Positions 1 through 64,000 of a stretch of 64,000 nt of DNA are shown here, one piece after another. This DNA is from Amphiscolops sp. MND2022. Taxonomy: Eukaryota. The first letter of the stretch is position 1. Each line of letters begins with the position of its first letter. Location of the stretch: assembly GCA_964187785.1 (NCBI GenBank), contig OZ076409.1, positions 75,208,001-75,272,000 of the forward strand, read 5' to 3'. Position numbers and translations under genes: made by a program. The notes beneath the pieces are model-generated. The model saw only the letters and a list, made by a program, of their open reading frames with translations, searched no databases and was not told the origin of the DNA.

Positions 1-2698
1 GCTCACATCACCCCACACGCCGGAAATGCCCAATTTGTCACTTCCGGTCGCAATTTTTGACTTTTTTGGATGGAGTCGAAGCCCATTTCCGATGTGAAGG
101 AGTGGGTTGAGCGCTCTGACCACGATATACTAAAAGTAGGTTTAGACAAAGTCCTTTCAAGAAAAAAGTAATGTGAGCCCGTAACTATCACCCCCTCACC
201 GGAAATAGGGGTCACGCCTCCTTTTTCTGTGCTGCAAAAGTGACATGTGCACATTTGTCCAACTCCGAAGCCCCGGAGCACCGTGGGACCCGTATACTTT
301 CTAAACACCAATCCCACACGCTACCGGAAGTGACCGGAAGTTTCACCGGAAATGACATCCTTGGACCGGAAATGGTCAAAAAATGACTTTTTTAATGCAA
401 AATAGACACAATTGGTGCGATTTTTAGGCAAAAAGCATAATTCGTGAAACGCTTGTTGCAGTTGGAAGGGCCATTGTTCAGCAAGAATGCGTACAGCATT
501 ACGTAGCACATCAAGTAGTTGATTCTTTTTCGTCCATAATATCCATAGGACCGGAAATGGCCATTTTTGAATCGGAAACGTCTTCAGCTTGATTTTTAAC
601 AGGTTTTTCCGCAATATTAGCGTAGGAATTGCTCGTCGGATGCTGTAGGTCTATTTCAAAACTAGCTGACTGCTTCTTAGAAATGTATTTCAGAAGTTCC
701 AACTAATTCCAGATGACCGGAAATGGGAGTAATTGCCTCCTTTATGACCTTTGAAAGATAGATTGTTAAAATCCGCAAATTATTTTATTCCACAATTGTT
801 GCTCAGGTTATATCTAAGCAATAACATCTGCTTGTTATGAAGTGCTGTAATGTGGGAGATACAAATATTGCTTTTTAATAGTTTTACATACGTGATATCC
901 GCCGCAATAAGGATTTTTCAAACCAACCATTTTGAAGTCCTACTGGTGTTCCGCACACCCGAAGCTATTTAAGTTTCTAGTTTCGATTTTCAGGCTTCCG
1001 CGACTATTTAGTTGAGATGATAGTTTTCACGTTCTCTGCAAAACGGGCATTTCATTGTGTATTTGACATTTATTGGGCTGTTTCACATTGTATTTCAAAA
1101 CTAATTGATCATACAATTTGGAACAATTGAAAATTTTTAATTGAACAAAAAATGTTTTAATACTTTCTCTTTCGTTGAAGATACTCTTTTGTGGCCATTA
1201 GAACAGGTTGAATTAGTTGAATAAGTAACCAGTGCGATACATCGTTTAATACATAGCGTTTGACATCGGTTTTTTTCGCGAACAAAGACAAGCTTGATTT
1301 GTTGGAAGTTTTTACCATATCGCTTCAAATCGGGTGTGACAAACAATGAATTTCTCGTTTTAATTGCTACTTCGAAAGCAACCTGAAAACGCAAATCGAT
1401 CTATTGAATTATGGAGATGAAACTAAGCATTTCAAGTCTGGGTTTCAATTTAATTCTATCACTCCGGACTATTTTCATGTCGCAAGAGTGATAAAGGGTG
1501 TTAGCAAGGTTAAAAACATCGAACAATTTCAATAATAAAGCCTCCGGAAAAAGAAGAAAAAATGAGTTTTCCTGTCAAAACAATGATAACCACGTACGAA
1601 ACCTCAAGCTTTTGTATTGTTCAATAGTCCAAAACGTGAATGAAGTTTTTAAATATCCAAGAGTTTCTAATCAAGCATGCGTTTCAAATGTCTCACAGGG
1701 CAGCATCGTTTTCAAAAAACAGTGCTTTCAATATGGTTTCATACCAGCAAAACGAACGCAGGCAAAACCACATTCTCAAAATTTTTGCACAATAACCAAT
1801 TTCTGTGGAAATCCTGTTTGATTCCTCAGGGTATATGGTGAGAACCCTGTTGGGTTCCAAAGTTGATGAGCTGTTTTCTTGGGTTTGCGAGATAAGTTAC
1901 AACGGAAATCTGAAAGCAGGTCGTCTTAATAAAATACCTGTTGCTCTTCAAACGAATGGACTTAAGTAGTCGAAATTTATTCTCAGACACTTTCGATCAG
2001 AGGATGTTTGAGTCCTAACGTTCGAATCAGGTTGGTTTCAGGTGGCTCGAAGTGCCAGCTGAACCAACTTTTTGAATAAAGAAAAACCCCACACCTCCCT
2101 TCATGCCACGCTACCCCGTATAGCGTTTCAACTTGACAGAAATTGGAACGTTTGATTTTGGCGTTGCTTGGGATTGACACAGCAGTGTTGATACTACATT
2201 TGGCAAAGAGAAATCGCAGAATTGATTGTTTCTGTTTTTTCCCTGTTGATTTAGTCTGTCGAGCGTACAAAGCAGTTTGGGAAACTAACTTGCATTTCCA
2301 CTGAACGAAAAAAAGTAGTAGCCTTGCAAACTCCTGGAAAAGATTGAATCAGGTTTCCCTATTTGTGAGATCAACTGTCACTCAATTATCATTTACTTTT
2401 TTAAAAAATTTTTAGGAACATCTAAACTTACTCTGCTCGACTCTCTTGAATAATGCAACAATCGTTTACTGATCTGTACTCGTGAGAAAAAAATCAACTG
2501 CAGGTCCAAAAACAATCTATATATCTTTGGTTTATTCCGTGCAAAGCTTTTTTTCACACCATGTGACTCAACTATTACATGTATGTAATGAAACCAATAA
2601 CACCTTCAACTATCAACGCCCACCGTCCGTAGGCATGCCGAGGCATGCCTTTCGACGACGCGCGCCGGAAACAATCTAACGGCGCCACCCGCTTCTGG
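1..2698 (+). mobile_element. Cassette 1 (3.07-kb family, left part outside the window)
   Basis: Colinear with 3076-5769. Ends with the 47-bp core (2614-2660) and CTGG|GTG. Mobile nature is inferred. Confidence 0.6.
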
Positions 2699-5600
2699 GT
2701 GGTCAGTGCTGTTGCGTTCATTTTTTTCCGGCCGTGGGGGAGGGCCCCTCTGAGGCCGGTCATTTTTCAGGTAACAGCTTTCTTATACAAAAAAGCGGGA
2801 AAAAACCTCAGTGCTCAAATCCCAACCGTCAGAATGAGCTGAAATTTGGCATGTAGCTAGTGCATTGCAAATGATTAGGATGGGTTATAACGCTATGTTT
2901 GGCAAAATTGGTTTTGTTGCATTTTTTTTGTCATATAGGGCCAAAAATGGCCTTTTTTGCGTATTTTTTGCTTGACTAGCTAATAACTCGCGTTGGGTTG
3001 GTACTAGCGATACGGGTGTGGGGTATGGAATTGAAAGATTACCAAGTACCTTGCTGATGACGTTATTTGATTTCCGCTCACATCACCCCCACGCCGGAAA
3101 TGCCCAATTTGTCACTTCCGGTCGCAATTTTTGACTTTTTTGGATGGAGTTAAAACCCATTTCCGGTGTGAAGGAGTGGGTTGAGCGCTTCGACCCCAAT
3201 ATACTAAAAGTAGGTTTAGACAAAGTCCTTTAAAGAAAATAGTATTGTGAGCCCGTAACTATCACCCCCTCACCGGAAATAGGGGTCACGCCTCCTTTTT
3301 CTGTGTTGCAAAAGTGACATGTGCACATTTGTCCAACTCCGAAGCCCCGGAGCACCGTGGGACCCTTATACTTTCTAAACACCTATCCCACACGCTACCG
3401 GAAGTGACCGGAAGTTTCACCGGAAATGACATCCTTGGACCGGAAATGGTCAAAAAATGACTTTTCAATGCAAAATAGACACATTTGGTGCGATTTTTAG
3501 GCAAAAAGCATAGTTCGTGAAACGCTTGTTGCAGTTGGAAGGGCCATTGTTCAGCAAGAATGCGTACAGCATTACGTAGCACATCAAGTAGTTGATACTT
3601 TTTCGTCCATAATATCCTTAGGACCGGAAATGGCCATTTTTGAATCGGAAACTTCTTCAGCTTGATTTTTAACAGGTTTTTCCGCAATATTAGCGTAGGA
3701 ATTGCTCGTCGGATGCTGTAGGTCTATTTTAAAACTAGCTAACTGCTTCTTAGAAATGTATTTCAGAAGTCCCAACCAATTCCAGAATACCGGAAATAAG
3801 AGTAATTGCCTCCTTTATGACCTTTGAATAATAAATTGTTAAAATCCGCATATTATTTTTTTCCACACTTGTTGCTGAGATTATATCTAAGCAATAACAT
3901 GTGCTTGTCATGAAGTGCTGTAATGTGGGAGTTACGAATATTGCTATTTAAGAGTATTACATACGTGAATATCCGCCGTAATAAAGATTTTTTAAAACAA
4001 CCACTTTTGAAGTCCTATAGATTGTCCGCACACCCGAAACAATTCAAGTTTCTAGTTTCGATTTTAAGGCTTCCGCGACTATTTAGTTGAGATGATAGTT
4101 TTCACGTTCTCTGCAAAACGTGCATTTCATTGTGTTTTTGACATTTATTGGGCTGTTTCACATTGTAATTCAAAACTAATTGATCATACAATTTGGAACA
4201 ATTGAAAATTTTCAATTGAACATTAAATGTTTTAATAGTTTCTCTTTCGTTGAAGATACTATTTTGTGGCCATTAGAACAGGTTGAATTAGTTGAATAAG
4301 TAGCCAGTGCGATACATCGTTTAATACATAGCGTTTGACATCGGTTTTTTTGCGAACAAAGACAAGCATGATTTGTTGAAAGTTTTTACCATATCGCTTC
4401 AAATCGGGTGTGACAAACAAGGAATTTCTCGTTTTATGTGCTACTCCGAAAGCAACCTGAAAACGCAAATCGATCTATTGAATTATCGAGATGAAACTAA
4501 GCATTTCAAGTCTGGATTTCAATTTAATTCTATCACTCCGGTCTATTTTTATGTCGCAAGAGTGATAAAGCGTGTTAGCAAGGTTAAACACATCGAACAA
4601 TTTTAATAATAAAGCCTCCGGAAAGGGAAGAAAAAATGAGTTTTTCTGTCAAAACTATGATAACCACGTACGAAACATCAAGTTTTTGTATTGTTCAATA
4701 GTCCAAAACGTGAATGAAGTTTTTAAATATCCAAGCGTTTCTAATCAAGCATGCGTTTCAAATGTCTGACAGGGCAGCATCGTTCTCAAAAAACATTGCT
4801 TTCAATGTGGTTTGATACCAGCAAAACGAACGTAGGCACAACCAGATTCTCAAATTTCTTGCAAAACAGCCGATTTCTTTGAAAATCCTAATTGATTTCA
4901 CAGGGTATATGGTGAAACCCTGTTGGATTCCAAAAATGAAAAGCTGATTTCTTGGGTTTGCGAGATAAAAGACAACGGGAATCTGAAAGCAAGTCATCTC
5001 AATAAAATACCTGTTGCTCTTTAAACAAATGGACTTTAGTAGTCGAAATTTTTTCTCAGACACTTTCGATCAGAGAATGTTTGAGTCCTAACGTTCGAAT
5101 CAGGTTGGTTTCAGGTGGCTCGAAGTGCCAGCTGAACCAACCTTTCAAATAAAGAAAAACCCCACATCTCCCTTCATGCCACGCTACCCCGTATAGCGTT
5201 TCAACTTGACAGAAGTTGGAACGTTTGATTTTGGCGTCGCTTGGGATTGACACACCAGTGTTGATACTAAATTTGGCAAAGAGAAATCGCAGAAATGATT
5301 GTTTCTTTTTTTTCCCTTTGATTTAGTCTGTCGAGCGTACAAAGCAGTTTGGGAAACTAACTTGCATTTCCACTGAACGAAAAAAAGTAGTAGCCTTGCA
5401 AACTCCTGGAAGAAATTGAATCAGGTTTTCCTATTTGTGAGATCAGCTGTCACTCAATTATCAATTACTTTTTTAAAAATTTTTAGGAACAACTAACCTA
5501 ACTCTGCTCGACTCTCTTGAATAATGCAACAATCGTTTACTGATCTGTACTCGTGAGAAAAAAATCAACTGCAGGTCCAAAAACAATCTATATATCTTTG

Positions 5601-6593: not shown

Positions 6594-7790
6594 AACGGTC
6601 CGCACGGTCTCGGACCATAAGGTGAAAAAGTGTCAGTGAGTTATGGTGACAACCAAAATGACATCGGTAGACCTCTAGGAGGCCTCTGAAAAAAATTGAT
6701 TTTTTTGAGTCACGGTCCGAGTTGATCTGTTACGTTGTATGAACATTTCATAATCATGTTACTCATAACCGGGTGCAGATAGCACCGTTGGTCATCTTTA
6801 TCAAAATGAACATTGGGCAGCGGTCTAACGATTGAGTGTAAAAAATATACCTTAGTTGCTATTGTGAAAGAAAAAAATTCTCAGAAGTGTTGTTTTCGAT
6901 TTTTCATATCGACTCGCAGTTACAAAAAGGTGATTTTCTCTTCAGGAACGGTCCGAACGGTCTAGGACCATAAGGTCAAAAATTGTCAGTGTGACATGGT
7001 GGCGCCCAAAAACCCATCAGAACACTTGTAGGAAGCTTCTGAAAGAATATCGGATTTTTACGTGGGTCCGAGAGTTATACTGTCACATCGTAACAACATT
7101 TCGGGTATGCATATCTCCTGACAGAGTACAGATAGCATCATGGATCACCTTTTCGAAAAAGAACGTGGGCCACTGGTCTATCGATTGGTCATAAAAAGTT
7201 TTCAGTCACTGCTGCACGGCGTGCACAATATGCCAATATGGGGTATTTAGCAATTTTTTGCACGACTCGGACCTACAAAAGTCCCATTTCTGCTCCACCA
7301 ACGGTCCGTACGGTCTTGAACCATAAGGTCAAAAAGTGTCAGTGTGCTATGGTGACGCCCAAAAACCCATCAGTACACTTGTAGAGTGCTTCTGAAAAAT
7401 TTTGGAATTTTTAGGTGAGTCCGAGAGTTATAGAGAGTTATGTTGTCACATCGTAACTACTTTTCGGGTATGTATATCTCCTGACAGAGTACAGATAGCA
7501 ACATGGGTCATCTTTTGGAAAATAAACGTGGCCCACTGGCCTACCGAATGGTGATAAAAAGTTTTCACTAGTTGCTACAGGGAATGATAAAAGTGCTTAC
7601 ATGTGTTACTTACCATTTTTTTAGGCGACTCGGACTTACAAAAAGCTTATTTGCTCGCCAACAACGGTCTCTACGGTCTCCGACCATAAGGTCAAAAAAG
7701 TTTTGTGAGCTATGGTGACGCCCAAGAACCCATCAGTTTACCTGTAGGATGATTCTGAAAAAATTTGTTTTTTTCCAGTTCACTATGTTA
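6594..7790 (+). repeat. Internal tandem subrepeat of about 353-363 bp
   Basis: The motif AACGGTCnnnACGGTCTnnnACCATAAGGT recurs at 6594, 6947, 7300 and 7663. Confidence 0.85.
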
Positions 7791-9668: not shown

Positions 9669-10669
9669 GCACTCCAAATACCAGAAAACAGGAGTTCCTT
9701 TATTCTCAAAATAGCTGTGGACAGTTTCATTCAACTTTCTTTTCTCACGTTAATTGATAAAATCAGAACATAAACATTTCCATTCGCTATAAGGAGATCA
9801 TAATTGAGTTCCATAAAAACATCTTTCATTGTGTCGCTTAAAAATACCATAAAAACAAACTTGAAACATATGAATTGTATGTGGAACGTACATTCTATTT
9901 ACCAGTGAGTGTCTACCCTTATTGGCTCCACCAAATCCTCTAACCCTCCACTAGACAGTACGTTACATCATACGTTGATGTATTTCACAGTGGTGACATA
10001 GGGCCAAAAAAAAACGAAATGGAGTGTATGCATTGCTAATGTTATTAAGTCAGCCAATTGTGGTAGGAAAGGTTCAATACTACGAAAAATATCTATTCCA
10101 ACTGAAAATGATTTGGGGCAAACACATGGAACACAAAAATACCTCAATAATTTTCACCAATCAATTTCTTCCACAAAAACTTTTGTGTCCGATGGTGTAT
10201 AATTTCCTAATTTGGAATCAGCCAGTCACGTCATTTTCACATCTCAGCTCGGTCATAACAGAGCGTTCTTTTTTGAAATTGTCTCTACCCAATTTCACGT
10301 AACGAGGCTGCTACGTCCCCTATTTGGAGTGTTATCAGTGTTTATAAGGGATTTATCACTCTAATGAACATATACTTCTAATGTTGAAACTCTTTCACTT
10401 TTCTTTGTAAATTGTTAAAGTAGAACATTGCTGTTATTCAGCAGGAACTCGCTTTGGCTTGCAGAATGATGGAAAATAAATGACAAGTCGCCCTGTAAGG
10501 CACCACGTGTCGTGGGGATGACAAATATGAAACAAGTTGAACACAACAAAGCCTACTTTTGTCAACAGAAGGGAAAACGAATATTTTAATTTTGAAAATT
10601 TTTATGTTTTTTAATACACATTTTCCTCGCATCTCGGCAGTGCAACTGCAACAACCTCGCCTCCACTGG

Positions 10670-11702
10670 GTGGTCACGGGTATACCCTACCACAATATTT
10701 GCGAGGTGGGGGAGGGGCCCCGAGTCCGAGCCATGCTGTCAGATTTCTATCTAGGATGAGGGGTCCAGAAAAACAGCGATTTTGGAATTGAGCCATACGA
10801 TTTGAATGAAACTTTGTGTGTGGGTAGATCTTAAAATTATAAGAACTTTTTCCCTCTGGCAAAACATGGTTGCAACACTGTGTTGGAAGTTATGAACAAA
10901 TGATCGGTTTTTTCACCTATTTTCGGCATATTTACGCCTCGGTACAACCAGCCTGTGGATACAATTGGCTGAAACGTTGCATGCGAGGCATAAATGAAGT
11001 GAAGTGTTTGCATGTCAAAAATCATTAGGCTGGTGACACTAGGCTGAGAGATAGAAGTGGAAAAAGAAGTGGAAAATTGTGAATTCTCCGGTCATTGCGT
11101 CATAACTTCCGAATTTTTGTATTGATGATGTTTCCTTCAGCGGTAGCAGTACTTTGGAGATGGTTTCATCATCACGTAGTGAGGATAAAAAATAAAAAAT
11201 AAAAAAGTTCTTCAAAAGTTCTACAAAAATTCTAAAATTTAAGAATTTTTCAAAAAAAAAAGATTTTCTCGTTTTTCGATGCTTTTTCACATTTTGAGTA
11301 CGAAAATGACGTAGCCCTGCACTTACGATCGCTATTTGAAGGATTTTCACATACCTCTTCCTCAATGTGTGGCCACTGTACAGAACTAATTGTTCTTTTG
11401 TTAGAAGTCCCGCCATTGTTTGCGGAAAAAGGTTCAAGAAACAACTTCTCCGTTGTTCCTGAGAAATGCGAAGCAGTTCGCAGGAACAACGGATAGAATT
11501 AACAAAGTACCCGGGTGGTTGGAATGAAAGATATGTAATCATCTGATAACTGATGAAAAACAGAGTTTTTCATCAGTTGAAAAGACGAAAAACGTTTCCA
11601 TGGATGTCACTCAAAGTGAACAGTACTGGTAGCGTATTTAAAAATATAATTCGACAGAAGCCGCCCGCCCACTCTGGTAATTAGTTTCCTTGCCTCCACT
11701 GG
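10670..11702 (+). mobile_element. Cassette 4 (1.04-kb family, no terminal core)
   Basis: 1033 bp. Homologous to 18738-19783, sharing the GGATACAATTGGCTGA block and the terminal TTGCCTCCACTGG|GTG. Confidence 0.55.
11449..11493. repeat. Subterminal hairpin type C
   Basis: TCCGTTGTTCCTG...CAGGAACAACGGA with an imperfect inner stem. Homologous hairpin at 19535-19584 (GTCACCGGTGTTCC...GGAACAACGGTGAC). Confidence 0.85.
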
Positions 11703-13091: not shown

Positions 13092-16000
13092 GTGGAGGTT
13101 ATTTTATAATAATTAAAGTGTTTTTTTCCGGAGTTTGTGGCTTTGGAAAAAACAAAAGGCGAGAAATTGGGCACTCCGGGCTGAACCGTATACACTCAAA
13201 ATTCGCCCAATATTTATACGATCTCGAAACCCAGCCGTACGATTTGGCTGAAAATTTGCATGCGGCTAAAAAATCAGATTCTAAGAACTATTTCCTGCTG
13301 ACATTTTTTTGAAATTTTTGTGTACGTTTCCCCCCCGCCCCCTAAAGGGGTCAATTTTCCCCAATTTTGCACTTATGAGCCAAATTCTCAAAACTGGTGG
13401 ATCTGAGCGTATTCCCGGCGGGGTCAACTTTTAACGCGCGCTCCTCAGTAGACCTTTTTGACTTTTAACTTTGGTGGTACGTTCACCCCCCGAGGAGGAA
13501 ATGGCGTTTTTGTGACTTCCGGTCGAGGCTTTTTTCACCCAAAAAATAGAATTAAGCCAATTTTGAGCAGGAAGGAGTGGATTTAAAGTGCCTGTACCCT
13601 GCTAAAAATTTGTTGGGCTTGTAGCGATATATCTCATACCAAGTCTGGTTTTCACCCCCAAACCCCCCTTGGGACCAAAATTCACCCAAACTTTTTTTAC
13701 CTCTGTTTGTAGTTTTTTTTGCAAAATGTCGTCATTTCCATGGGTAAGGAGTTGAATTAGGGGCTCCTAATAGGGTACCAATGTTCAAGTACACTTGCAG
13801 TGCAACTGAGTGACCCTTTTGGGGCCTCTCCTGTGTTCGGCGAGGACCGGAAGTGGTGTAAACCCCCCTTTTTTGACGTTTGTTGACCTTGAGACTCGCG
13901 CTTAGATGACGTTTATGTCGCGCAAATCCTACAAACCAGTATTAGGATGACATGCTAGCCTACTAGAGAGCACTAAGGGAAACTATACTATACCGGAAGT
14001 AACCCCCCGTGACCGGAAGTTGTCATTTTTGACCGGAAATGGTCCAAAACATAGCGTAAAAGCAGTTTTCATTGCTTTTAAAGTCAACTTATTACTTTTT
14101 TCAGTCTGCGCGAGCTTGTCTTCAGATTCGTTTTTGTTGTCCGTGCACACTACAACAAATATACATCTGTAGAACTTTTGCTATAATATCGTCGGAGAGA
14201 GAAATAACGGGTTTTCGGAATTTTTTTCAAAAATGTTTGTCTATATCTATCATTTTTACCCAACGTTATTCAACAGTAGAACCACAGGGGTTAGTATCTG
14301 CCAAAATATATGCCTAACAAAACCACTCGTCCCATTGGTTGCAGTTTGAGCGTTCTAGCTTTGCCTGGTCACAAGTTGAGGGACTTCAAAAAGTTTCAAA
14401 TTTTTTTGGAAAATTTTTTTTAAACGTCACGTCTCCCAAAGTTAAGAATTTTCCACACAACTAGGATTGCAAGAGAATGCACATGGTAAGACCTATAAAT
14501 GGAGAGAAAAATTCCGTTCAGAACGTCTCTTTATCGTTACGTGACGTTAAAAGATGTTGCTTTGAATGTGAATTTGATAATGCGTCGAGAAGTAAAAGAG
14601 TGTGAATGGATCCTATGTCTCGACAAATACTCATCGCAATACATACGATGAACCCCAATTACCCTCACTTTCAGTTGGCTAGTACATCAGCGTCTTCCAA
14701 GGACCGTTTACCTATTTAAAAATTGTCAAATTCATTATTAATATCAGTTAGCAAGAAATATTTGAGTACATTGTCATCTCTCCCCATCGGGTGAGATGAG
14801 AATGTTCTTGCTAAAAGTCAAGTACTACGGCCCATTTTTGTTTTATTGCGACGTTTTCTGTGCCTTAGCACAAGGATACTTTTATGTCATCTCACTTTTG
14901 TTATACAATCTGACTTGTTGTTATAAAATTCTCGTCATTACTTTACCTAAACTTACTACCATGCATCTTTAACGTCAAAGCCAAATTCATTTAGACGCCC
15001 ACCATTCCGTAGGTATGCCGAGGTATGCCTTTCGAAGAAGTATGGCAAAACACAAACGGGCAAATGAAAAGGGCTGAAATTCAGAAACAGTCACAAACAA
15101 TTTTGACTATTTGACCGATGGTAGGTTTTTATATGGAACTTACACATCACTGACATTTCAAAACATTCCAGCTGACGCCCACTTACAAACATCAACGCCC
15201 ACGGTCCGTGGGCATGCCGAGGCATGCCCTTCGACGACGTATGGCAAATACCTTTTACGACGTCCCAACTTTCCCTAGGTGGAGGTTATTTTATAATAAT
15301 TAAAGTGTTTTTTTCCGGAGTTTGTGGCTTTGGAAAAAACAAAAGGCGAGAAATTGGGCACTCCGGGCTGAACCGTATACACTCAAAATTCGCCCAATAT
15401 TTATACGATCTCGAAACCCAGCCGTACGATTTGGCTGAAAATTTGCATGCGGCTAAAAAATCAGATTCTAAGAACTATTTCCTGCTGACATTTTTTTGAA
15501 ATTTTTGTGTACGTTTCCCCCCCGCCCCCTAAAGGGGTCAATTTTCCCCAATTTTGCACTTTTTAGTCAAATTCTCAAAACTGGTGGATCTGAGCTTTTT
15601 CCCGATGGGGACAACTTTTAACAAGCGCTGTTCAGTAGACCTTTTTGACTTTTTACTTTGGTGGTACGTTCACCCCCCAAGGAGGAAATGGCGTTTTTGT
15701 GACTTCCGGTCGAGACTTTTTTCACCCAAAAAATAGAAATAAGCCAGTTTTGAGCAGGAAGGAGTGGATTTAAAGTGTCTGTACCCTGCTAAAAATTTGT
15801 GGGGCGTGTAGCGATATATCTCATAGCAAGTCTGGTTTTCACCCCCGAACCCCCCTCGAGACCAAAATTCACCCAAACGTTTTACCTCTATTTGTGGTTT
15901 TTTCACAAAATGTCGTCATTTCCATCGGCAAAGATTTGAATTAGGGGCTCCTAATAGGGTACCAAAGTTCAAGTACACTTGGAGTGCAACTGAGTGACCC

Positions 16001-17464: not shown

Positions 17465-18737
17465 GTGGTCGGGAATTTTTTTTCTGCTCAAATCTTTGCC
17501 GCTGGGGGAGGGGCCCCTTGCGGCTGCTGTTCGGTTTTACTACCTACCAAAACCTGCTTTTTTTTTCACGATCTCGAGAACCACCCGTACGATTTTCCTG
17601 AAAATTTGCATACAGGCTTAGAATCAAATCCTAAGAACTATTTCCTACTGGCGTTTTTCCGAATTTTTTCAAAAAGTTGGTCAAAAACGCAACAAAAGTT
17701 GCCAATGGACATAAAAAACGCAACTTTTCGACTTTTAGGGCTCATAACTTTTTCCAGAGTGCCCGGAGCGACCCGTGTGCATCGGACACTTTTGTTCAGC
17801 ATTCTAGGAAGAGTGCGTGGGCAAATTTTCGTTTAAATCGGACAAAAATTGACTGAGAAATTAACGCAAATTTTGGTGCATTTTTTGCGAAGACTAGTCT
17901 ATCTCTGCCATTTTCGCCCAAAATTTTTCCCAGAGCTTTTACAGGAGGCAACCCCTGCCCAAATTTCTGCCGAGCAAACCCATTTGGCCCTAAATACGAG
18001 GTTTCAGCGTTCTAGCATTTCCGGGCAAAAAGTTGTGGGACTTAGAAATTTTTCAAAAAAATGCAAAAAGTGTAAAAAGTAACTTCCGGCGTCCCAAAGT
18101 CAAGAAACTTTCACACAACTAGTATTGCAAGTGAATGCATGTGGAAAGTACTTGGATAGACGAGAAAAATGAGCTATTATAAACCTCTGTAGCTTAATCT
18201 GACGTTGACTTATGACATTTTGAGTGTGAGCATCCTATAGGATTTTAATGTCAAAAATGAGATTTTGTAAGTCATGTCTCATCAAAAACTCGTCGGAATA
18301 CGTTCAATCATCCCCATAGCTGTTCAAGTACTGTGACTTAGTAGAGCAACGCCATTTAATGTCCTTGGACCCATTTTGAAAATTTTCGTTATCGTCTTAT
18401 TCGTCCGATATCCCGAAACAGTTGAGTACATTCCATCTCTCCCTTAAGGGGGAGATGAGAATGTACTCGCCAAACACCTGACACAATGGCCCATATTGGT
18501 TTTTATTTGACCTTTCTCAATGATATTACACACGGATAGCTGTGTTTGGTAAAAGTTTTCCATTGCACCATGTCTCCAGAAGCTAAACCACTTCTTTAGC
18601 CTACTACTTCTACTCAAACATCACTAACGTCAATGCCACATACTCGCATCAACGCCCACCGTCCGTGGGCATGCCGAGGCATGCCCTTCGACGACGTATG
18701 CCAAATAGCGCCACCTGGCGCCCCCAATTTCCGCTAG
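17465..18737 (+). mobile_element. Cassette 8 (1.3-kb class)
   Basis: 1273 bp. Hairpin A at 18424-18468, core at 18650-18696. Right half closely matches the right half of cassette 36. Confidence 0.6.
18424..18468. repeat. Subterminal hairpin type A (representative copy)
   Basis: GAGTACATTC-CATCTCTCCC-TTAA-GGGGGAGATG-A-GAATGTACTC. Present in the 1.3-kb and 2.18-kb cassettes, e.g. 14764, 16953, 25657, 26927, 28215. Confidence 0.92.
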
Positions 18738-19783
18738 GTGGTCCGGGGTAGTTCCCCACATTATTTAGTGCGAGGCCGGGGAGGGTCCCGATGCCGAGCT
18801 TAATTTTCGCGTGTCGTACTATATCCTTTAGCACACCAGTCAAAAAACGGCGATTTTCGAATTGAACCGATAAAACTTCTTTAAACTTTGCATGTGTACT
18901 TATCTTGCCGATGTAAGAATGATGTTCTGCTGGTCAAACATGATCCTATTACTTGGCGGGAAGTTATGAGCAAATGATCGGGTTTTTCACCCAATTTCGG
19001 TACTTTTTCGCTGCGATATCTGCAGCATGTGGATACAATTGGCTGATACTTTGCATGCGAGGCATTAATGATGTCAGGTGTTTGCATGCCAAAAATCATT
19101 AGGCTGGTGATACTAGGCTGAGAGATAGAAGTGAACGAAGTAACAGAAATTTGTGAATTTTCCTGTCATTGCGTCATAATTTCCGAACTTTTATACAAAT
19201 GATGTTTCCTTTAGCGGTAGCAGTACAGTCGATGTGTTTTCAACATCACGTGGCCAGGATAAAAAATTAAAAATAAAAAAGTTCTACAAAAGTTCTCCAA
19301 AAATTCTAAAAATTGCGAATTTTTTCAAAAAAAAAATTTTTCGGGTTCCATTGTATTTTTATACCAGGAATTCAAAAATCACATTATTTATCGTGTCAAC
19401 GGCGCCAAAATGGGTTTATTTTTAATATTGACCGCTTTCACCAGCTTGATATACCAGTTTCAGTAAGTATTTGAAAAATACTCAGGGTTGAGGCAAATGC
19501 ATAAGTAGCACGATTTTAAAACGTAATTTTATTTGTCACCGGTGTTCCGAGGGATGCACAGCAGCACGCAGGAACAACGGTGACCCGGAAGGAAGGCTGT
19601 AGATACTTGTTACGACCGAAGGCAGTCACTGTTTAGTTTTGTTCGACATGATTATGTACGTCGTTGCGATGTGCATCAGCAAAAATTCACATCAGTGACC
19701 CCAAAGTGGAACAAGTTATACATGAATTGAGAACAGACAGTACCGTTCGGCCCCCTGGTAATTGGTAGCTTTGCCTCCACTGG
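18738..19783 (+). mobile_element. Cassette 9 (1.04-kb family, no terminal core)
   Basis: 1046 bp. Diverged homologue of cassette 4, with hairpin C at 19535-19584. Confidence 0.55.
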
Positions 19784-22700
19784 GTGCGCCGGGGTGTTGT
19801 CCCCAGCCCTTTCCGCCGGCGAGGGTAGGGTTCCCTTCGCCGGCTTGAACTTCGCGAAGCCAAGCTTACGTATTAGCAAACATGCCCCCTAAAAAATGCG
19901 ATCTCGAAAATGAACCGTCAGAACCGGCTAAATTTTTGCATGCACCCATATTTTGGGAAGACAAGAATTTTTTTCTGCTGACGTTTTGCCGAAAAAATAT
20001 TCGGTCATGCCGAAATACCGTATTTTTTGAAGATAAAAGGGATAAATTTGTTGGTATATAAAGTTTACCTTTAATAACTTTTACACGGTGCACGCTAGCC
20101 CAATGATGCATACTAACAAAAAGTTGTGAAGTGTGGCGCGTCGAATGATGGTGCCAAAAAAGTGCCGATCGGGGCACTCAAAGTGCCAAAAAATGCCAAA
20201 ATGTTAAGTATCACCAATATCACCTAGGCTTATAGGTCAATTTGAGCACGTTAAACGGTCCGAACGGTATCGGACCAAAAGATCAAAAATTGTCAGCATT
20301 CAATGAGGGTTTCAAAAATGTAGTTTATACACGTGTAGGATTCATATTAAAAAAGTCGATTTTTTTGAGTGTATGGCATGATGAGCTAGGATGAAATTTT
20401 TTATAATGTACATTCCATTAAAGTACTCACTATGCAGCACCAGTAGCAGCGGAAGTCATATTTATGAAAAAGATCAAGGGGCTGGGGTCTACTCACGGTA
20501 CTATCGCAAAATAGGCCTGGGGCAATAGTGGTGCCAAAAAATGCCTTATAGTGAGGAATGATTTTTTTGTAAATCAGCTCATATTTCGATACGTGTGACT
20601 TCCTTGTCAACAACGGTCCGCACGGTCTCTAACAATATAACCAAAAATTGTCAGTGAGCTATTGTGACGACCAAAATGACATCGGTTGACCTCTAAGAGG
20701 CCTCTGGAAAAATTTGATTTTTTTGAGTCACGGTCCGAGTTGATCTGTTACGTTGTATGAACATTTCATATTCATGTTACTCATAACTGAGTACAGATAG
20801 CACCGTGGGTCACCTTTATCAAAATGAACATGGGGCAGCGGTCTAACGACTGAGTGCAAACATCATACCTTAGTTGCCACAGTGAAAGGAAAAAATTTTC
20901 AGAAGTGTTCTTTTCAATTTTTTATGTCGACTCGCAGTTACAAAAATGTGATTTTCTCTTCAGCAACGGTCAGAACGGTCTCGGACCATAAGATAAAAAT
21001 TTGTCAGTGTGATATGGTGGCACCCAGAAACACATCAGAACACTGGTAGGAAGCTTCTGAACGATTTTCGAATTTTCACGTGGGTCCGAGAGTTATAGTG
21101 TCACATCGTAACTACATTTCGGGTTTGCATATATCCTCACAGAGTACAGATAGCATCATGGGTCACCTTTTCGAAAAAGAACGTGGGCCACTGGCCTATC
21201 GATTTGTCATAAAAAGTTTTCAGTCACTGCTGCACGGCGTGAATAATATGCCAATATGGGGTATTTAGCATTTTTCTGTACGACTCGGACCTACAAAAGG
21301 CCCATTTCTGCTCCACCAACGGTCTGTACGGTCATCGACCATAAGGTCAAAAAGTGTCAGTGTGCTATGGTGACGCCCAAAAACTTATCAGTACACTTGT
21401 ATAGTGCTTCTGAAAAAGTTTGGATTTTTTAGGTTAGTCCGAGAGTTATGGAGAGTTATGTTGTCACATCGAAACTACATTTCGGGTATGTATATCTCCT
21501 GACAGAGTACAGAAAGCAACATGGGTCATCTTTTGGAAAGTGAACGTGAGCCAGTGGCCTACCAATTGGTGACAAAAAGTTTTCATCACTTGGTACAGGG
21601 AGTGGAAAAAGTGCTTACATGTGTTACATAGCATATTTTCAGGCGACTCGGACTTACAACAAGCTCATTTGCTGGCGAACAACGGTCTGTACGGTCTCCG
21701 CTCAGATGGTCGAAATTTTATCGTGAGCTATAGTAACGCCCAAAAACGTATCAGTTTACCTGTAGTATGATTCTTTAAAATTTTAGTGTTTTCGCGCTGA
21801 CTATGTTAGATATGTCATTGGGAACCGCGTTCTTTTCCTATCGAAATCGTGTTTTTGACTGCCCAAAAACAGTTTTTAAAGCTCAAAAACCACATAAAAT
21901 CTTGTTTTGCATAACATGGGATGTGAATACCATGAAAAAAGTGCCAACTGTGGGTTTGGAGTCATTTTGAGAAAATCAGATGCCATTAGACGTTACACAT
22001 CAGAAAATGATATTCCACATATCAATTTATGGGTTGAGTGAAAAATAGCCCAAATGAGTTTTCAGTCAATTAGGACTCTTTTTTGTTCACAACCATGTGT
22101 ACAGCTGACGTGGAACACATATTGACCTTCCACAATGGATATATTGCGATTTTGAGTGACAAAAGCCCCGTTGACAAACAAAATTCCAAGATAAAATTTT
22201 TTTCCAAATCTTTTTTTGATGTATAGGACCACCAAATTTTGCTCACAAACATCAACTATCCATTTCTGTTAGACCAGTGGCATGTGAAAAACACAACTTG
22301 GCATTGACAAGCCACTTACACTATAAATCGAGTAGTCATGGGCAACAACATTTGCAAATCAGTTGTGAAATTGGTCAAAAATTGATAAAACATCACAATT
22401 TTGGTGGAGTCAAACTAGCAAAATTGAGTTTTATCAGCAACTATTGGCTTTTAAAGCAATCCACTGGCCCTGTAAAATAGGAAAATGATGATTACCGAAC
22501 TTTTAAGGTTACATTTCAGAGTCTGACTCAGCTAAAAATATCATACTGAAGAGACGCATTACTACAACTTCAGTCTTTTTCCCGTTGTGTCACCACTTTT
22601 TTGGTATCGGCGGTCCCACCAATACTGTTTTTGGTCTAACACTAAACCTGAGGATCAACCAAGGTGGATACCAGACTTGAAAAATCCATGCAAGAAAATC

Positions 22701-25930: not shown

Positions 25931-28900
25931 TATGCCAAATAGCGCCACAGGGCGCAAACTTGTCCGCTAGGTGGCCGGGAATTTTTTTTTCAGCAAAATC
26001 TTTGCCGCTGGGGGAGGGGCCCCGGGCGGCTGTTAACCGGAATTCATACTATGCAAAACCTATCACAATTCTCAGATCTCAGGATCCAGCCTGTAGGATT
26101 CGCTCAAATTTGGCACAGAGCCTCCTTGAATGATTATAAGAACTTTTTCCTAGTGGCGTTTTTCGATTGAAATATTTTATGTTGACCAAAATTGCGTTTA
26201 AAATGCCCATTGTTGCGTTTTTATTGTCTTTTTCGAATTTGACGGTCCATAACTTTTTTTGAGGTGCTCGGAGCAGGTCGCACGTGGAGAGCAATATTAC
26301 TCAGCACTAAAAGGGGAGTGCGTGAACAAAATTTCGTCCAAATCGGATGAAAATTGGATGAGTAATAGCCGGAAATTTGGCGCATTTTGTCGACTTTTTT
26401 CGAAAACCCAGTCTATCTCTGCCGTTTTTTGCCCAGATTTTTTCCCAGGTCCTCGCCTAAAGGCCTCCCCTGGCCGGTTTACATCCCAAAAAAGCCATTT
26501 GGCCCTTTTGCCGCAGTTTCAGCGTTCCAGCGTTTCCCGAACAAAAGATAAATGACTTAGAATTTTTTCAAAAAAAGGTTCAAAATTTTTTTTTCAAATT
26601 CAGGCCTCCCAAAGTCAAGAAACTTCCACACAACTAGTATTGCAAGTGAATGCATGTGGAAAGTGCTTGAATAGACGAGGAAAATGAGCTATTATAAAAC
26701 TCTGTAGCTTAACCTGACGTTGACTTATGACATTTTTAGTGTGAGCTTCCTATGTGCTAAAAAGTCAAAAAACGTAAGTCTCTTTGAAAACAAATCGGAA
26801 TACGTCCAGTCAACCCCAGAGCTGGTAAATTGCCGTTGTCTAGTGCAGCAACGCCATTTAGAGTCTTTTGACCCACTTTGATACCGTTTTGATACCGTCT
26901 TATTCATCCGATAGCACAAAACCGTTGCGTACATTCCATCTCCCCCTTTGTGGGGGAGATGAGAATGTACCCGCTAAATGACACGCACAATGGCGCAATT
27001 TTATTTTTATACAATGTTTTCTAGGCTGTCGCGCAAGCCCACTAATATTTAGACTGGTTTCTTTCTCTTTCACTCCAAACTTTCCCTACTAACCACCTTA
27101 CACACCATCAGCTCAACGTTACTTCTGTAACGTCAACGCCACATACTCGCATCAACGCCCACCGTCCGTGGGCATGCCGAGGCATGCCCTTCGACGACGT
27201 ATGCCCATTAGCGCCACAGGGCGCCCAATTTTTTCTAGGTGCCGGTGTCTTTTTACACAATGGGGGAAGTTGCGCGGTTGGGGAGGGTCCCTGACGCGCT
27301 TCCGTGAGATCAGGTTTTTCAACTAGTGAAATCGACAAAGAAAATTGGGATCTCGTAAACTAGCCATACGATTTGGCTGAAATTTGGCACACGTACCCCC
27401 CTCGGCACGGTGAAGATGATTCCCTACTGACGTTTTTCCCGCTAAACATTTTTTGTTGACCAAAATAACGGTTTTTGGGGTAAAATTTTCAACTTTTTTT
27501 AAATTTCATCTTATATCTCGCCACGGGTGCACGCTAGCGCTTCCAAACCTTGCTGACGAAAGTTTGCAAACTGTCTCAGGAATGCTGTGTGAAAATTTAA
27601 GCTCAATCGGACTCGAACTCGAGGAGATATAGCGTTTTTCCGGAGCGGGGGGGTTTAATTTTTCTAACGGTCCAGCTTATCTTTGCCATTTTTTCGAAAA
27701 TGCACTCGCCTAAAGGCCTCCCCTGGCCGGTTTTATTCCCAGCAAAACCATTTGGCCCTAAATACGGAGTTTCAGCGTTCCAGCATTTCCGGGCGAAAAG
27801 TTGTGGGACTTAGAACATTTCAAAAATTTTCAAAAAATTTTTTTTTCGTTATTTGGGCCCCCAAAGTGGGGGAAAAGACCCCCCAACCAGTAAATCAAGT
27901 GAATGCATGTGGAAAGGCCATGTTTAGAGGAGAAAAATGCCGTTTAGAACGTCTTTTTATCTTGACTCAACGTTGACTTATGACGTTTTGAAGGTGATGT
28001 TTGGAGGTGTAAAGCAAGTGAATAGTAAACGTTATGAGTATTTATCTGATCTGAAAGCCATTGAGATGCAATATGGTTTGCTCAAAACGTAATTCATTGC
28101 AGTTTGGCAATCAATCAACACCCTTTGTTGTCGTTTGACATACTTTTTTGTTGTTAAAATAAAAAATTTTGTGTATTTATTCATTTTTTTCTCATCAAAT
28201 AACTTGGAACAGTTGAGTACATTCCATCCCCCCCTTCCGGGGGAGATGCGAATGTACTCGCAAAAAGCACCGAACTACGGCCCTTACCTTCCCGAGCTAC
28301 GCAGTATAAGGATTACATATTGGTTCCGACATTTTCATAGAGTTAAATCTTGGTAATCTGTCTGGATATGCAGAAAAACCAGCACGTGCTTTTTTATACC
28401 AAGTTGCTCACAACGACAATTATTTTATATCAACGCCCCCATATTTATCAACGCCCCCCGTCCGTGGGCATGCCGAGGCATGCCCTTCGACGACCCGCAC
28501 CAAAATATGCGTTAGCGCGGTAGCCGCTAGGTGCCGGGATTTCTATTCGTTCGAGTATGTGGCGCGTGTGGGTAGGGCCCCTGGCGCGCTCTTGTGTTTG
28601 GGGGTTTCCTACTTCTAAATCACGTTCAGATTTCCGGGATCTCGTAAACTATCCATACGATTTGGCTGAAATTTGGCACACGTACCCCCCTCGGCACGGT
28701 GAAGATGACTTCCTACTGACGTTTTTCCCGCTAAACATTTTTTGTTGACCAAATTAACGGTTTTTGGTGGAAAATTTTTGATTTTTTTTAAATTTTATCT
28801 TATATCTCGCCACGGGTCCACGCTAGCGCTTCCAAACCCTGCTGACGAAACCTCGCAAACTGTCTCAGGAATGCTGTGTGAAATTTTCAGCTCAATCGGA

Positions 28901-33690: not shown

Positions 33691-36600
33691 GTGGAGGTTA
33701 TTTTATAATAATTAATGTGTTTTTTTCCGGAGTTTGTGGCTTTGGAAAAAACAAAAGGCGAGAAATTGGGCACTCCGGGCTGAACCGTAAAGGCCGATTT
33801 TATACTGTAAAAAACGCCCATTCTAACTACGATCTCGAAACCCAGCCGTACGATTTTGCTGAAAATTTGCATGCGGCTACAAAATCAGATTCTAAGAACT
33901 TTTTTCTGCTGACTTTTTTTTGGAATTTTTTTGTACGTTTCCCCCCCGCCCCCTAAAGGGGTCAATTTTCCCCAATTTTGTACTTATGAGTCATATTCTC
34001 AAAACTGGTTGATCTGAGAGCAATCCTTGTGGAGAGAACTTTTGTAGAGCGCTCTTCAGTTGACTTTTTGGAGTTTTTACTTTGGTGGTACGTTCACCCC
34101 CCACAGCGGAAATAGCGTTTTTGTAACTTCCGGTCGAGCAATTTTCCACCCAAAAATTAGAATTATGCCAGTTTAGAGCACGAAGCAGTAGTTTTAGCGT
34201 GTTCACACTCTCCTGAAGTTTTGTTGGGCGTATTGAGATAGACATGATATCAAGTGTTCAGTTCACCCCCATCACCCCCTGGACCGGAAATGAACTTTCT
34301 TTTTTCCCCTTTCTTACAGGAAGTGTCGATTTTCACCGGTAAGGAGTCCTTGTACGAGCAACTAGCAGGGCATCAAAATTGACGTACCACCTGGGGTCAA
34401 CTTAGTGAACACGTGTTGTCCAGTCATGGGTACCGCCATGACCGGAAATGGGGTCAAAACCCCCCTTTTAGTTGTTGTTTTATCAATTTGACTAGTGTTT
34501 GGTCCACATTCAAGTCGCGTAAAACAATTGAACCTGTGTGAGCATAAACTGCATGTTCACTGCGTAAACGTAACAGACACTGCCAGATACCGGAAGTAAC
34601 CCCCCGTGACCGGAAGTTGTCATTTTTGACCGGAAATGTTCCAAAAAATAGCGTAAATGCAGTTTTTCACTGCTTTTTAAGGTCAAGTAATTACTTTTTT
34701 CAATCTGCACGAGCTTGTCTTCAGGTTCGCTTTTGTTATCCGTGCACAGCGCAACAAATATACATCTGTAAAATTTTCTCTATAATATCGTCGGAGAGAG
34801 AAATAACGGGTTCTTGGGGCTTTTTTAAAAAAATAATAGTCTATATCTGTAATTTTTGTCCAAAGTTATTCAACAGTACTACCACAGGGGTTAGTCTCTG
34901 CCCAAATACATGCCTAACAAAACTATTTGTCACATTCGTCTCAGTTTGAGCGCTCCAGCTTTGCCTGGTCATAAGTTAAGTGACGTAGAAAATTTTCATT
35001 TTTTTTTCAAAAAAAATTTCTCGCCTTCAGTTCCTCCAAAGTAAAGAAACTTCCTCACAACTAGGATTGCAAGTGGATGCATGTCGCAAGCCCTATAATT
35101 GAAGCACAAAAAACCGCTTAGGACGTCTCTTCATCGTAATTTGACGTTAACGTATGGTGCTTTGAATGAGAGCTTGCTAAGGGGTCGAGAAGTCAAAGTA
35201 TGTAAATGGAACGTATGTCTCGTCGAAAAGTCATCGGAATACATGCAATGAACCCCAATTGCCCTCAATTGCAGCTGCCTAGTGCAACAACGTCTTTCAG
35301 GGACCTTTAACCTATTTTTATTTGTGTCAAAACTATTTTAAGTTCAGTTAGCAAGAAACACTTGAGTGCATTCTCATCTCTCCCCAGCGGGTGAGATGAG
35401 AATGTTCTTGCTAAAAGCCAGGTACTACGGCCCACTTTTGTTTTAATGCGACGCATTCTCTGCTTTAGCACATAGATATTTTTATTTCGCCTGATTTTCT
35501 GTATACACTCTGACTTGTTATTATGAGTTCCTCGTCAATACTTCACATATATTTACAATCATCAAACGTTATCGTCAACGCCAAATAGATTTAGGCGCCC
35601 ACCATTACGTAGGTATGTCGAGGCATACTTTTCGATTACGTATGTCAAAACGCAAACGCGATAAAAAGTGCTAAAATTCAGAAACAGTGACAAACAAATT
35701 TGACTATTTGACATATGGGAGGTTTTCATATGGAACTTACACATAGCTGACATTTCACAACATTGCAGCTGACGCCCACATACCAACATCAACGCCCACT
35801 GTCCGTGGGCATGCCGAGGCATGCCCTTCGACGACGTTTGCCAAATACCCTTTACCGACGCGCACTCTGCCGCTAGGTGGATGGTATTTTATAACAATTA
35901 AAGTGTTTTTTTCCGGAGTTTGTGGCTTTGGAAAAAACAAAAGGCGAGAAATTGGGCACTCCAGGCTGAACCTAAAAACACCCTAAAATTCGCCCGATTT
36001 TTTTACGATCTCGAAACCCAACCGTACGATTTGGCTGAAAATTTGCATGTGGCTCCTAATCAATGAGTAATGAAAAAGTGTAGAAGTGACTTTTCCTGGG
36101 AAAATTGTTTTTGTTGCACTTTTTGCGCAATTTTTGACCGATTGTTGCGTTTTTTATGTCACTTTCGACTTTTCAGGCAAAAAACTCATAGATGCTTTGA
36201 TCCTAGCGCATCCAGTGTTTCGACCAAAAAGTTGCAACATGGTCTTTTACGTACGTTGTGAAAATTTGGTAGCCATCGTATCACCCCCCACTGAGTTAGA
36301 GGGGAACTTCCGGTGGATTTTAGCACCCTAAAAACAAGGACCTCCTAAACTTCAGCATGAAGCCGTAGTTTTAGCGTGCTCATAACCTGCTGAAGTTTTG
36401 TTGGGCATGTTGAGATAGTCATGATAGCATGTGTTTAGTTCACCCCCCATCACCCCCTGGACCGGAAATGAACTTTTTGTGCACTATCATTCCGGAAGTC
36501 TCCAGTTTCACCGTTAAGCAGTCCTTGTACGAGCAACTACCAGGTCATCAAAATTGAAGTACCACCTGAGGTCAACGTAGTGACTACGTGTTGTCCAGTC

Positions 36601-39600: not shown

Positions 39601-40224
39601 ACCAATTATCATCAATTGCAGTTGCCTAGTGCAAAAACGTCTTTCAAGGACAATTTATTCGTTTTCCTAACTGTCCAAATTGCTTTTAAATTCAGTTAGC
39701 AAGAAACAGTTGAGTACATTCTCATCTCTCCCCATAGGGTGAGATGAGAATGTTCTTGCTAAAAGCCAGGTACTACGGCCCACTTTTGTTTTAATGTGAC
39801 GCATTTTGTGCTTTAGCACATAGATACTTTTATTTCGTCTGACTTTTCGTAGACACTCTGACTTGTCATTATAAATTTTTCGTCATTACTTTACATAAAC
39901 TTAATACCATACAACTTTAACTTCAACGCCACATACATTTAGACGCCCACTATTCCGTAGGTACGCCGCGGCATGCCTTTCGACGACGTATGTCAAAACG
40001 CAAACGCAATAAAAAGTGCTGAAATTCAGAAACAGTGACAAACAAATTTGACTACTTGAAATATGGGAGGTTTTTATGTGGAACTTACACATAGCTGAAA
40101 TTTCACAACATTGTAGCTGACGCCCACATGCCAACATCAACGCCCACCGTCCGTGGGCATGCCGAGGCATGCCCTTCGACGACGTATAGCAAATCCCTTC
40201 CACCGACGCGCACTCTCCCGCTAG
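33691..40224 (+). mobile_element. Cassettes 18-20 (2.18-kb family)
   Basis: Starts at 33691, 35877 and 38055; lengths 2186, 2178 and 2170 bp. Degenerate second cores at 35593, 37767 and 39941. Confidence 0.6.
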
Positions 40225-62742: not shown

Positions 62743-64000
62743 GTGCGGGGGGGTAACCCCAACTTTTTTCTTGGAGGAATCGGGTAGGGTCCTGATTCCG
62801 AGTTCAGTGCCGCCAGCTATCGTTAAAAACCCATACCTTTTAAACCCGATCTCGGGAACTAACCACGCCCCTTCTTTAATTTTTTGGCCCCCACTCACTT
62901 TTTGAGAGTAGATCGCCCCCCACTGGGTTCCAAGTTGGGCAAAAATGGAGGTCATGGGTAACGGGGACCGTTAAGGGGTAACTCAGGGGGTAAAATTTAT
63001 TTTTTGCGTCATATCTTTTCCCCCCGTGGATTTAGCGCTTCCGGTCAGCAGACAAAACCTCATGTACGTGATAAGGGGCCTCCGTAGGTCCAAACAAAAT
63101 TTTTCTATCATGCACCGTTACGGACTTGCCCCCCCGGCCCAACCGTTATTTTGCCGGAAATTGCCTTTTTTGACAGGAAAGGAGTCGTCTGAGCACGGAG
63201 TCGCTTGGTAATGTTTTGTAGTGCATCTGGAGACGTGTTGGGGGACATGTAGTTTGCCGACCCCAGTTTACCCCTCGGACGGGAAATGACCGTTATGTGA
63301 GTTTTAAAAATGCCCCCCTTCAATTTTCCCCGCAATTTCCGGTGTGAAGGAGTGGGAGTAGGGTGTCGGGTGCCATATATCAAAAGTAGGTTTAGACAAG
63401 GACCAACCGGAAACATGTGGTTTCGGACCCCCTGACCCAACCCGTTAGCCGCTATTAGGGTGATCGCCTCCTTTTTTTGCTGTTAAAACCGGAAAACGGG
63501 CATTGAGGGGTAAATATCTCGTGAACGCGTGGAGCAATCGTGTCCATCACTACTACAAGGTTTCATACCCATGATATGGTGCCTTCAGGGGGGCAAACAG
63601 ATTACCGCTATCTATCACCGTTACCGACTTGGCCCCCCAGCCTAACCGCTATGTGACCGGAAATTGCACTTTTTGAGCCCAAAGGGTCGATCCTAGCCGG
63701 GCAACGATAGGTAACATATTGTAGTACTCATTGAGACGAGTTGGGGGATCTAGTTTCAGTCACCCCCGTTACCCCTTGAGACCGGAAATGACCGTTATGT
63801 GAGTAGAATTGCAATTTTTATACCTTTTGAAGGGCATTTAGAAGCGGAAGGAATGGTAATAGGTGCTTGGACACTATATGATGTAATGGAGGTCGTGAGG
63901 AGAGCATTCGGAAGTAACCGTTACGTTGACCCCAAAGTCCCCCTGGTACCGTTAACAACCGGAAATGGCCAGATTTTGTGTTTGTAGGGTACAAATGTTT
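62743..64000 (+). mobile_element. Cassette 38 (1.98-kb family, truncated by the window end)
   Basis: Closely similar tandem copy of 60765 to about 62020. Confidence 0.6.

Follow-up and report, generated by a model that had tools for sequence, protein, structure and literature searches.

Helitrons are described as moving by a top-strand nick at the left end, unwinding and a second nick past the right-end stem-loop, which yields a circle (PMC13085455; papers with PMC numbers are cited throughout for the excerpts used, not as whole texts). HLE1 elements are expected to carry a palindrome of 16-20 bases about 11 bases from the 3' end (PMC4067079), and HLE2 elements (Helitron2, Helentron, HINE, DINE-1) asymmetric terminal inverted repeats of 8-15 bases, with the 5' copy 0-4 bases from the end. 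The Helitrons described in these excerpts insert at dinucleotides (PMC8788227), save for a ciliate class that inserts at telomeric repeats (PMC13085455). Some Helitron lineages have different termini and aim at a fixed target (PMC13085455, PMC5148889), and tandem insertions as well as self-insertions are known (PMC5148889). Families of Dada transposons likewise stack at one target (PMC3706591). The excerpts of the open-licence literature used here do not describe any case in which many families stack at the junction that they themselves form and carry the signals reported below; Repbase or Dfam may contain them.

The locus that we compare with these systems is a stretch of 64,000 bases, analysed as a whole (the window), in which cassettes follow one another through a recurring heptamer:

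1-64000, plus strand: same-strand head-to-tail array of 38 non-coding cassettes in nine classes; both array ends lie outside the window
2695-2701, plus strand: junction CT(A/G)GGTG, with 37 plus-strand occurrences in the window
10666-10672, plus strand: junction without a core before it, as also at 11699, 19780 and 24680; ends of classes B and C

Cutting at every CT(A/G)GGTG leaves 36 complete cassettes among the 38, with lengths of 1033-4900 bases and both ends intact in 36/36, and the classes run along the array as AABCDEEFCBFFGGGGFEEEGGFFGGGGHGGGGGHFII. Comparison of the window with itself returned no minus-strand match among 1517 alignments. Mixed neighbours come in 16 kinds and like-class neighbours are in excess (18/37, p < 5e-5); near-identical cassettes (98-99%) can have differing neighbours, and adjacent near-duplicates exist. 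The window has a GC content of 41% and a CpG observed/expected ratio of 0.98, and its host is presumably an invertebrate animal. Indels and substitutions between cassettes follow no codon pattern, and no Pfam match came near cut-off in 79 frames read from stop to stop (75 out of the 76 that reach 70 amino acids or more in 1-27300, together with four ORFs from 58312-63440, the remaining window being largely further copies). Rfam gave nothing at gathering score and five weak matches in 1-28000, while no tRNA genes were detected in the window. Terminal inverted repeats are absent: between the first 30 and last 60 bases, the longest exact inverted match is 4-6 bases in 35/36 cassettes and 8 in one.

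Searches with core, interior and head patterns found no match in viral contigs or prokaryote genomes and a single one in metagenome contigs. This contig of 1172 bases, L001, joins a related cassette end, whose core is identical to 2614-2660 in 47/47 bases, to a new head, and it shows the same cassette design. Its interior blocks are 70-82% like those of the closest cassettes. Its junction reads CGAGGTG, so that the upstream part ends in CGAG and not in CTRR.

All 37 plus-strand CT(A/G)GGTG sites are cassette boundaries, and neighbours are swapped freely and exactly there. In head-matched pairs identity ends 4-8 bases upstream of GTG in 20/23 cases, and in tail-matched pairs it ends 3-7 bases downstream of GTG in 15/20, the pairs being non-independent in both counts. 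Because identity breaks just either side of GTG, we place the exchange within the heptamer. The A/G of the heptamer goes with the upstream cassette, which narrows the exchange to GGTG, and the base after GTG goes with the downstream cassette. GGTG is also the only part of the junction kept in L001. The earlier note had listed a recombinase site among possible roles of the conserved core that precedes most junctions; this role is not borne out, as the exchange lies 30-44 bases past the core. Crossing-over inside the core was rejected as well, because each tail varies with the cassette to which it belongs and not with the head that follows (partial correlation -0.02), and so was guide-type pairing of a core CACC with the junction GGTG, as 12/34 cores read CCCC with the junction unchanged. 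DIRS-like retroelements, in which an internal region is complementary to the joined ends, were another candidate that we dismissed: in reverse complement the junction is present 6 times over the 64 kb, where one copy in each cassette would be expected.

One short core common to every joint, between freely shuffled neighbours, would suit conservative site-specific recombination by a Crypton-like tyrosine recombinase or by integron-like single-strand chemistry, with a crossover core of 4-7 bases and the 47-base element as arm or accessory site. Words of the CAACGCC type, repeated about 21 bases apart ahead of the 47-base core, could be accommodated too, and Cryptons are described without terminal inverted repeats and with terminal direct repeats of 4-6 bases, some CryptonV being target-specific (PMC3212892, PMC8869645). 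GGTG stands at every joint, which in an array looks alike as a direct repeat or as an end-plus-start fusion. Such enzymes, however, typically need inverted arms of 11-13 bases around a spacer of 6-8 (PMC3212892), whereas no conserved inverted arms surround the junction, and the A/G of the heptamer sides with one partner. In the excerpts used, animal CryptonA and CryptonI are without terminal repeats and CryptonV targets microsatellites (PMC8869645, PMC3212892). The cassettes share with Crypton/CryptonV elements and bacterial integron arrays a short crossover core common to non-coding-ended cassettes, but they have no junction-spanning attC-type fold, no gene cargo and no recombinase among the 79 frames scanned. 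A recombinase would also leave unexplained a Hel-2-like block at the cassette heads (see below), and overall we regard this reading as doubtful.

Target-specific DDE transposons of the Dada type, lacking terminal inverted repeats and stacked in tandem with the heptamer as target-site duplication, would be a very improbable source of the array. Dada elements do lack terminal inverted repeats, make duplications of 6-7 bases and occur as different families in tandem with one duplication between them (PMC3706591). However, no small RNA gene was found in the window by the Rfam and tRNA searches, and no subterminal inverted repeat is shared by the cassettes. Moreover, the heptamer differs between the two sides of some cassettes: that at 18738-19783 is bordered by the A form on the left and the G form on the right, unlike a duplication, and the G agrees with the tail of its class mate.

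Most junctions (33/37) are preceded by the core, and 4/37 are not. The features of the cassette tail are as follows:

2614-2660, plus strand: 47-base subterminal core, reference copy
5685, 13007, 15193, 17378, 18650, 25884, 27153, 28449, 29735, 31035, 32322, plus strand: further terminal core starts
33604, 35790, 37963, 40138, 41430, 42741, 44007, 45276, 46568, 47838, 49131, plus strand: further terminal core starts
50416, 51696, 53012, 54300, 55571, 56844, 58132, 59396, 60677, 62648, plus strand: further terminal core starts
14994-15040, plus strand: decayed internal core copy, 199 bases upstream of a terminal copy, with no junction after it
17182, 35594, 37767, 39942, plus strand: other decayed internal core copies; all five are in the 2.2-kb class
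2631-2650, no strand assigned: central 20-base dyad with self-palindromic arms; 8-pair hairpin, and two p53-type decamers with zero spacer
2662-2685, plus strand: variable tail hairpin of 5-6 pairs, 9-12 bases before CT(A/G)G

In line with the earlier note, the 33 terminal copies all lie on the plus strand, and they start 76-91 bases before the C of CT(A/G)GGTG (76-84 in 31/33). All but one are within 4 mismatches of 2614-2660; the copy at 51696 has 7, due to a shift of one base at its 5' end. Over 34 sequences, 34/47 columns are invariant and mean column identity is 98%. On the plus strand, no site has a mismatch count between 17 and 22, a gap that puts the copies far beyond chance. Between classes, identity is 94% in the core but 31% over the preceding 60 bases and 43% over the following 30. 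Across ten homologous representatives of the 1.3-kb cassettes, no other window of 47 columns scores as high as the core (0.96 versus a median of 0.60; an interior block reaches 0.92).

The degenerate copy previously noticed at 17199 reads as it had been described, yet it is one of five and not the only one. Each decayed copy precedes the terminal copy of one of five 2.2-kb cassettes by 196-199 bases, and within these cassettes the terminal copies diverge by 0% (35 bases, positions 13-47), the internal duplicates by 14% and the flanks by 12-17%. Since the duplicates drift at background rate while the terminal copies stay identical, constraint depends on terminal position, and the decayed copies are likely abandoned former ends. 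The same comparison of terminal with internal copies supports the proposal that the core acts in cis as a signal linked to the cassette end; that it is required there does not hold up, for classes B and C end without it, and we conclude that it is not essential.

A passive complex satellite, in which gene conversion homogenises a functionless core, would account for the frequent like-class neighbours (18/37) and the adjacent near-duplicates. The breakpoints, however, fall in 7 bases outside the core, identity drops from 94% to 31-43% at the core edges, the internal duplicates escape homogenisation and stems at the cassette heads covary (see below). We consider a satellite of this kind very improbable.

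The structural claim made for the core fared less evenly. A hairpin is present, though with 8 pairs and a loop of 4 bases instead of 9 pairs and a loop of 2, and folding yields the CGTC/GACG stem for RNA, whereas in the DNA centroid this stem is not stable. The folded terminal copies are more stable than shuffles on either strand (z -2.6 to -4.4). The states reported for the outer pair were all recovered over the 33 copies, namely G-C in 29, A-T in three (2631/2650, 5702/5721, 62665/62684) and G-T in one (13024/13043), and L001 contributes a fourth A-T. What they had been taken to mean does not follow: both sides change in only 1/12 pairs of the terminal copies, a count reached by 221/500 shuffles, and the covariation score is reached by 21/500 shuffles with relatedness among copies uncontrolled. 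As A-T versus G-C follows cassette class, the compensatory pair may be a single event, and covariation fails as proof of the hairpin, coming down to one pair and perhaps one event. The basal CGTC/GACG stem shows no compensation, one break and one wobble; the decayed copies add one further compensation. By hand count, all copies together hold six G-T states versus one A-C, a weak hint that the core folds on the plus strand. Conservation is equal at the unpaired and the paired positions of the core (0.94 versus 0.94), which makes it likely that a protein reads the sequence of the core besides its shape.

A candidate for such a protein belongs to the p53 family. The central 20 bases match its consensus of two RRRCWWGYYY decamers (PMC7498329) at 19/20 positions in 32/33 terminal copies and in L001, with all four core C/G intact, and at 18/20 in the remaining copy. 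Per 64 kb, 0.12 sites of the 19/20 type are expected, and a random 9-pair hairpin fits the consensus with a probability of 1.5-3.6e-4, in a comparison made post hoc. A search of the open-licence literature for the central 18-mer gave no paper. The core might mainly serve host regulation, as a p53-family response element beside sites for other factors that most cassettes carry and that is unrelated to any cutting chemistry, which would account for the self-palindromic arms, ten bases apart, and for the four core-less cassettes. The two variable stem positions change only from purine to purine and from pyrimidine to pyrimidine; they are a purine and a pyrimidine position of the consensus, and since both readings accommodate such changes, the compensatory pair does not separate the hairpin reading from the p53 reading. 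The match is post hoc, however, and conservation outside the 20-mer equals that inside. In addition, the core C/G are lost in the duplicates, at a distance of just 196-199 bases, and these copies drift freely although an enhancer-type site would not have to; their changes mostly keep pairing. As the main function of the core, then, such a module seems unlikely. p53 binds sites in mobile elements, and in mammals under 8% of predicted sites recruit it (PMC7498329). With p53 response elements of transposable elements the cassette sites share the 19/20 match to the consensus and the zero spacer; the known cases, however, lie in vertebrate retroelements (PMC7498329), whereas those of the cassettes stand at a fixed distance from the end of a DNA element, inside an equally conserved 47-mer.

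Two minor features of the tail deserve mention. Most cores are preceded, at a distance of about 21 bases or some two helical turns, by a second copy of their first word (25866/25884, for instance), and the common A/C variant at core position 9 falls where EGR/KLF-type zinc-finger factors presumably tolerate change. The tail hairpin occurs at 10/37 cassette ends (classes A, D and F), is unconserved across the array and reaches z < -2 in 3/31 distinct tails.

The cassette heads carry signals of their own, which the earlier note had not picked up:

2728-2759, plus strand: stem-loop of the head, 40-50 bases past the cassette start, with GGG-(G/T)AGGG as invariant loop motif
2831-2851, plus strand: Hel-2-like head block, +124 to +161; best example 27369-27389

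The stem-loop is found in 32/37 cassettes and in L001; the 2.2-kb class lacks it, and the core-less classes have it. Its outer stem differs between families with complementarity kept: arms form 4.9 pairs with their own partner versus 3.3 when swapped among 14 family representatives, not all of them independent, a difference reached in 0/100000 permutations. This covariation is far stronger than that of the core. G-T pairs in the head stem occur almost only on the plus strand, 10 versus 0 with RNA parameters and 6 versus 1 with DNA parameters, G-rich strands favouring G-T, and this is what single-strand recognition of the head would lead one to expect. A conserved first hairpin at the head was significant in 0/27.

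For the second signal we used a 21-base motif taken from the Hel-2 rows in the supplements of PMC4344730. Sought for an apparent likeness to Helitron interiors and built after inspection of the window, this short motif, which other element classes may share, matched 25 times with at most 2 mismatches, always on the plus strand, in 24 heads and one interior (0.03 expected). At up to 3 mismatches it is present in 27/37 heads versus 2/2000 interior control windows; four heads reach it only at 7 mismatches and L001 at 3. Another short word of Hel-2 stands 22 bases further on, as against 23 in Hel-2 itself (PMC4344730), and the polarity of the block agrees with the CTAG end. The Helentron/DINE-1 supplements of PMC2374699 and PMC4067079, where sequences may be present as figures only, gave no match to the motif.

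Put together, the CTRG ends, the single-strand structure of the head, the Hel-2-like block, the lack of terminal inverted repeats and the abandoned internal ends lead us to the reading, to which we give a probability of roughly one half, that the core is a protein-read right-end signal of non-autonomous, Helitron-like rolling-circle elements targeting their own end-start junction. A HUH (RepHel-type) enzyme encoded elsewhere would nick the cassette head before or within GGTG and the plus strand would be peeled off from there, until the core, read by sequence and perhaps also as a hairpin, halts the process and a second cut after CT(A/G)G releases a circle. This circle would be joined into another existing junction, whose GTG start would stand in for the element's own, much like the target T at an A|T site, which resembles the 5' T of a Helitron; local duplication and unequal exchange would then reshuffle the array. 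A host p53-family protein may also bind the central 20 bases as an accessory, non-essential input. Abandoned internal ends fit the end-bypass behaviour described for Helitrons (PMC5148889), whereas the absence of a unique-target preference in Helitrons (PMC8788227) counts against self-targeting. Also against this reading are the missing 5' TC and A|T insertion, the CGAG end of L001, the distance of the core dyad from CTRG (39-54 bases and not about 11), the unconserved tail hairpins, the four ends without a core and the five heads without a stem-loop.

The cassettes are not canonical Helitrons. A 3' end of the CTRR type, CTAG or CTGG, is present at 37/37 window junctions, but GTG follows CTRG at 37/37 heads in place of a 5' TC, and each array boundary reads CTRG and then GTG without A|T insertion. 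As defined in the excerpts of PMC3627910, PMC4067079, PMC11417382 and PMC5148889, Helitron1 (TC, A|T) and HLE2 do not include them. With non-autonomous HLE1 such as insect Hel-2 (PMC4344730), they share the type of 3' end, the lack of terminal inverted repeats, a non-coding variable interior, internal tandem repeats and a conserved head block of the same polarity. They differ from HLE1 in their start, in being strictly stacked at their own junction, in the head stem-loop and in a 47-base sequence-conserved core, the main dyad of which ends 39-54 bases before CTRG. Hairpins at both ends recall HLE2, and the 3' subterminal repeats of mite HINE elements are palindromic and lie 38-60 bases from the end, like the core (PMC4067079); a matching 5' inverted repeat, insertion at TT or T(T/C) and T-rich ends are all missing from the cassettes.

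Paramecium Helitrons are alike in rolling-circle movement (presumed here), altered termini, a single orientation and a fixed target, but they end in CCAA and target the telomeric repeat, whereas the cassettes would use their own junction (PMC13085455). Orientation-specific insertion at a short motif, subterminal hairpins and an apparent short direct repeat are shared with IS91-family and IS200/IS605-type HUH insertion sequences and with Replitrons. The former two are prokaryotic, Replitrons are from algae, plants and protists, with no animal report in the excerpts used, and no enzyme was found among the cassette frames scanned.

If the self-targeted rolling-circle reading is true, stacking at the own joint would amount to a self-made safe haven, and behind the array one would expect a eukaryotic enzyme that finds its target to the exact base and in one orientation. 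Such an enzyme could be useful for integration tools and would help to explain how large non-coding arrays originate. Being short and invariant, the end signals can serve directly as probes in the search for the mobilising enzyme, and a p53-family site fixed in an end signal would offer a direct test of p53 gating of DNA-element mobility in invertebrates. More speculatively, and with little confidence, one may picture an undescribed, sequence-targeted animal cassette system in which one enzyme inserts unrelated, non-coding cassettes with head and tail signals at GGTG joints to build integron-like arrays, and in which the p53-family site in the tail couples movement to germ-line DNA damage.

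Several features of the cassette interiors were seen in passing. A non-coding block at 17975-18021 and its homologues (L001 134-180) has a conservation of 0.92, almost that of the core, and gave no sign of conserved RNA structure (consensus energy -5.9 kcal/mol, no covariation term). A long interior hairpin with a fixed bulged stem, at 18424-18470, recurs in every 1.3-kb cassette at some 310 bases from its end and is common to classes F, G and H and to L001 (565-610), with a mean pair identity of 0.85. A second long hairpin of about 43 bases, at 9628, 12769, 23692 and 62279, is common to the otherwise unrelated classes B, D and I. What we take to be ETS-like words cluster in the interiors of classes A, D, E and I, e.g. 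at 3273-3440. The two 4900-base cassettes are equal in length despite 72% identity and contain a 363-base internal tandem repeat (6947-7762 and 21088-21755). Finally, two cassettes at 35877-40224 (c18 and c19) look mosaic, with a front resembling class D and a rear resembling class E and the 1.3-kb families.
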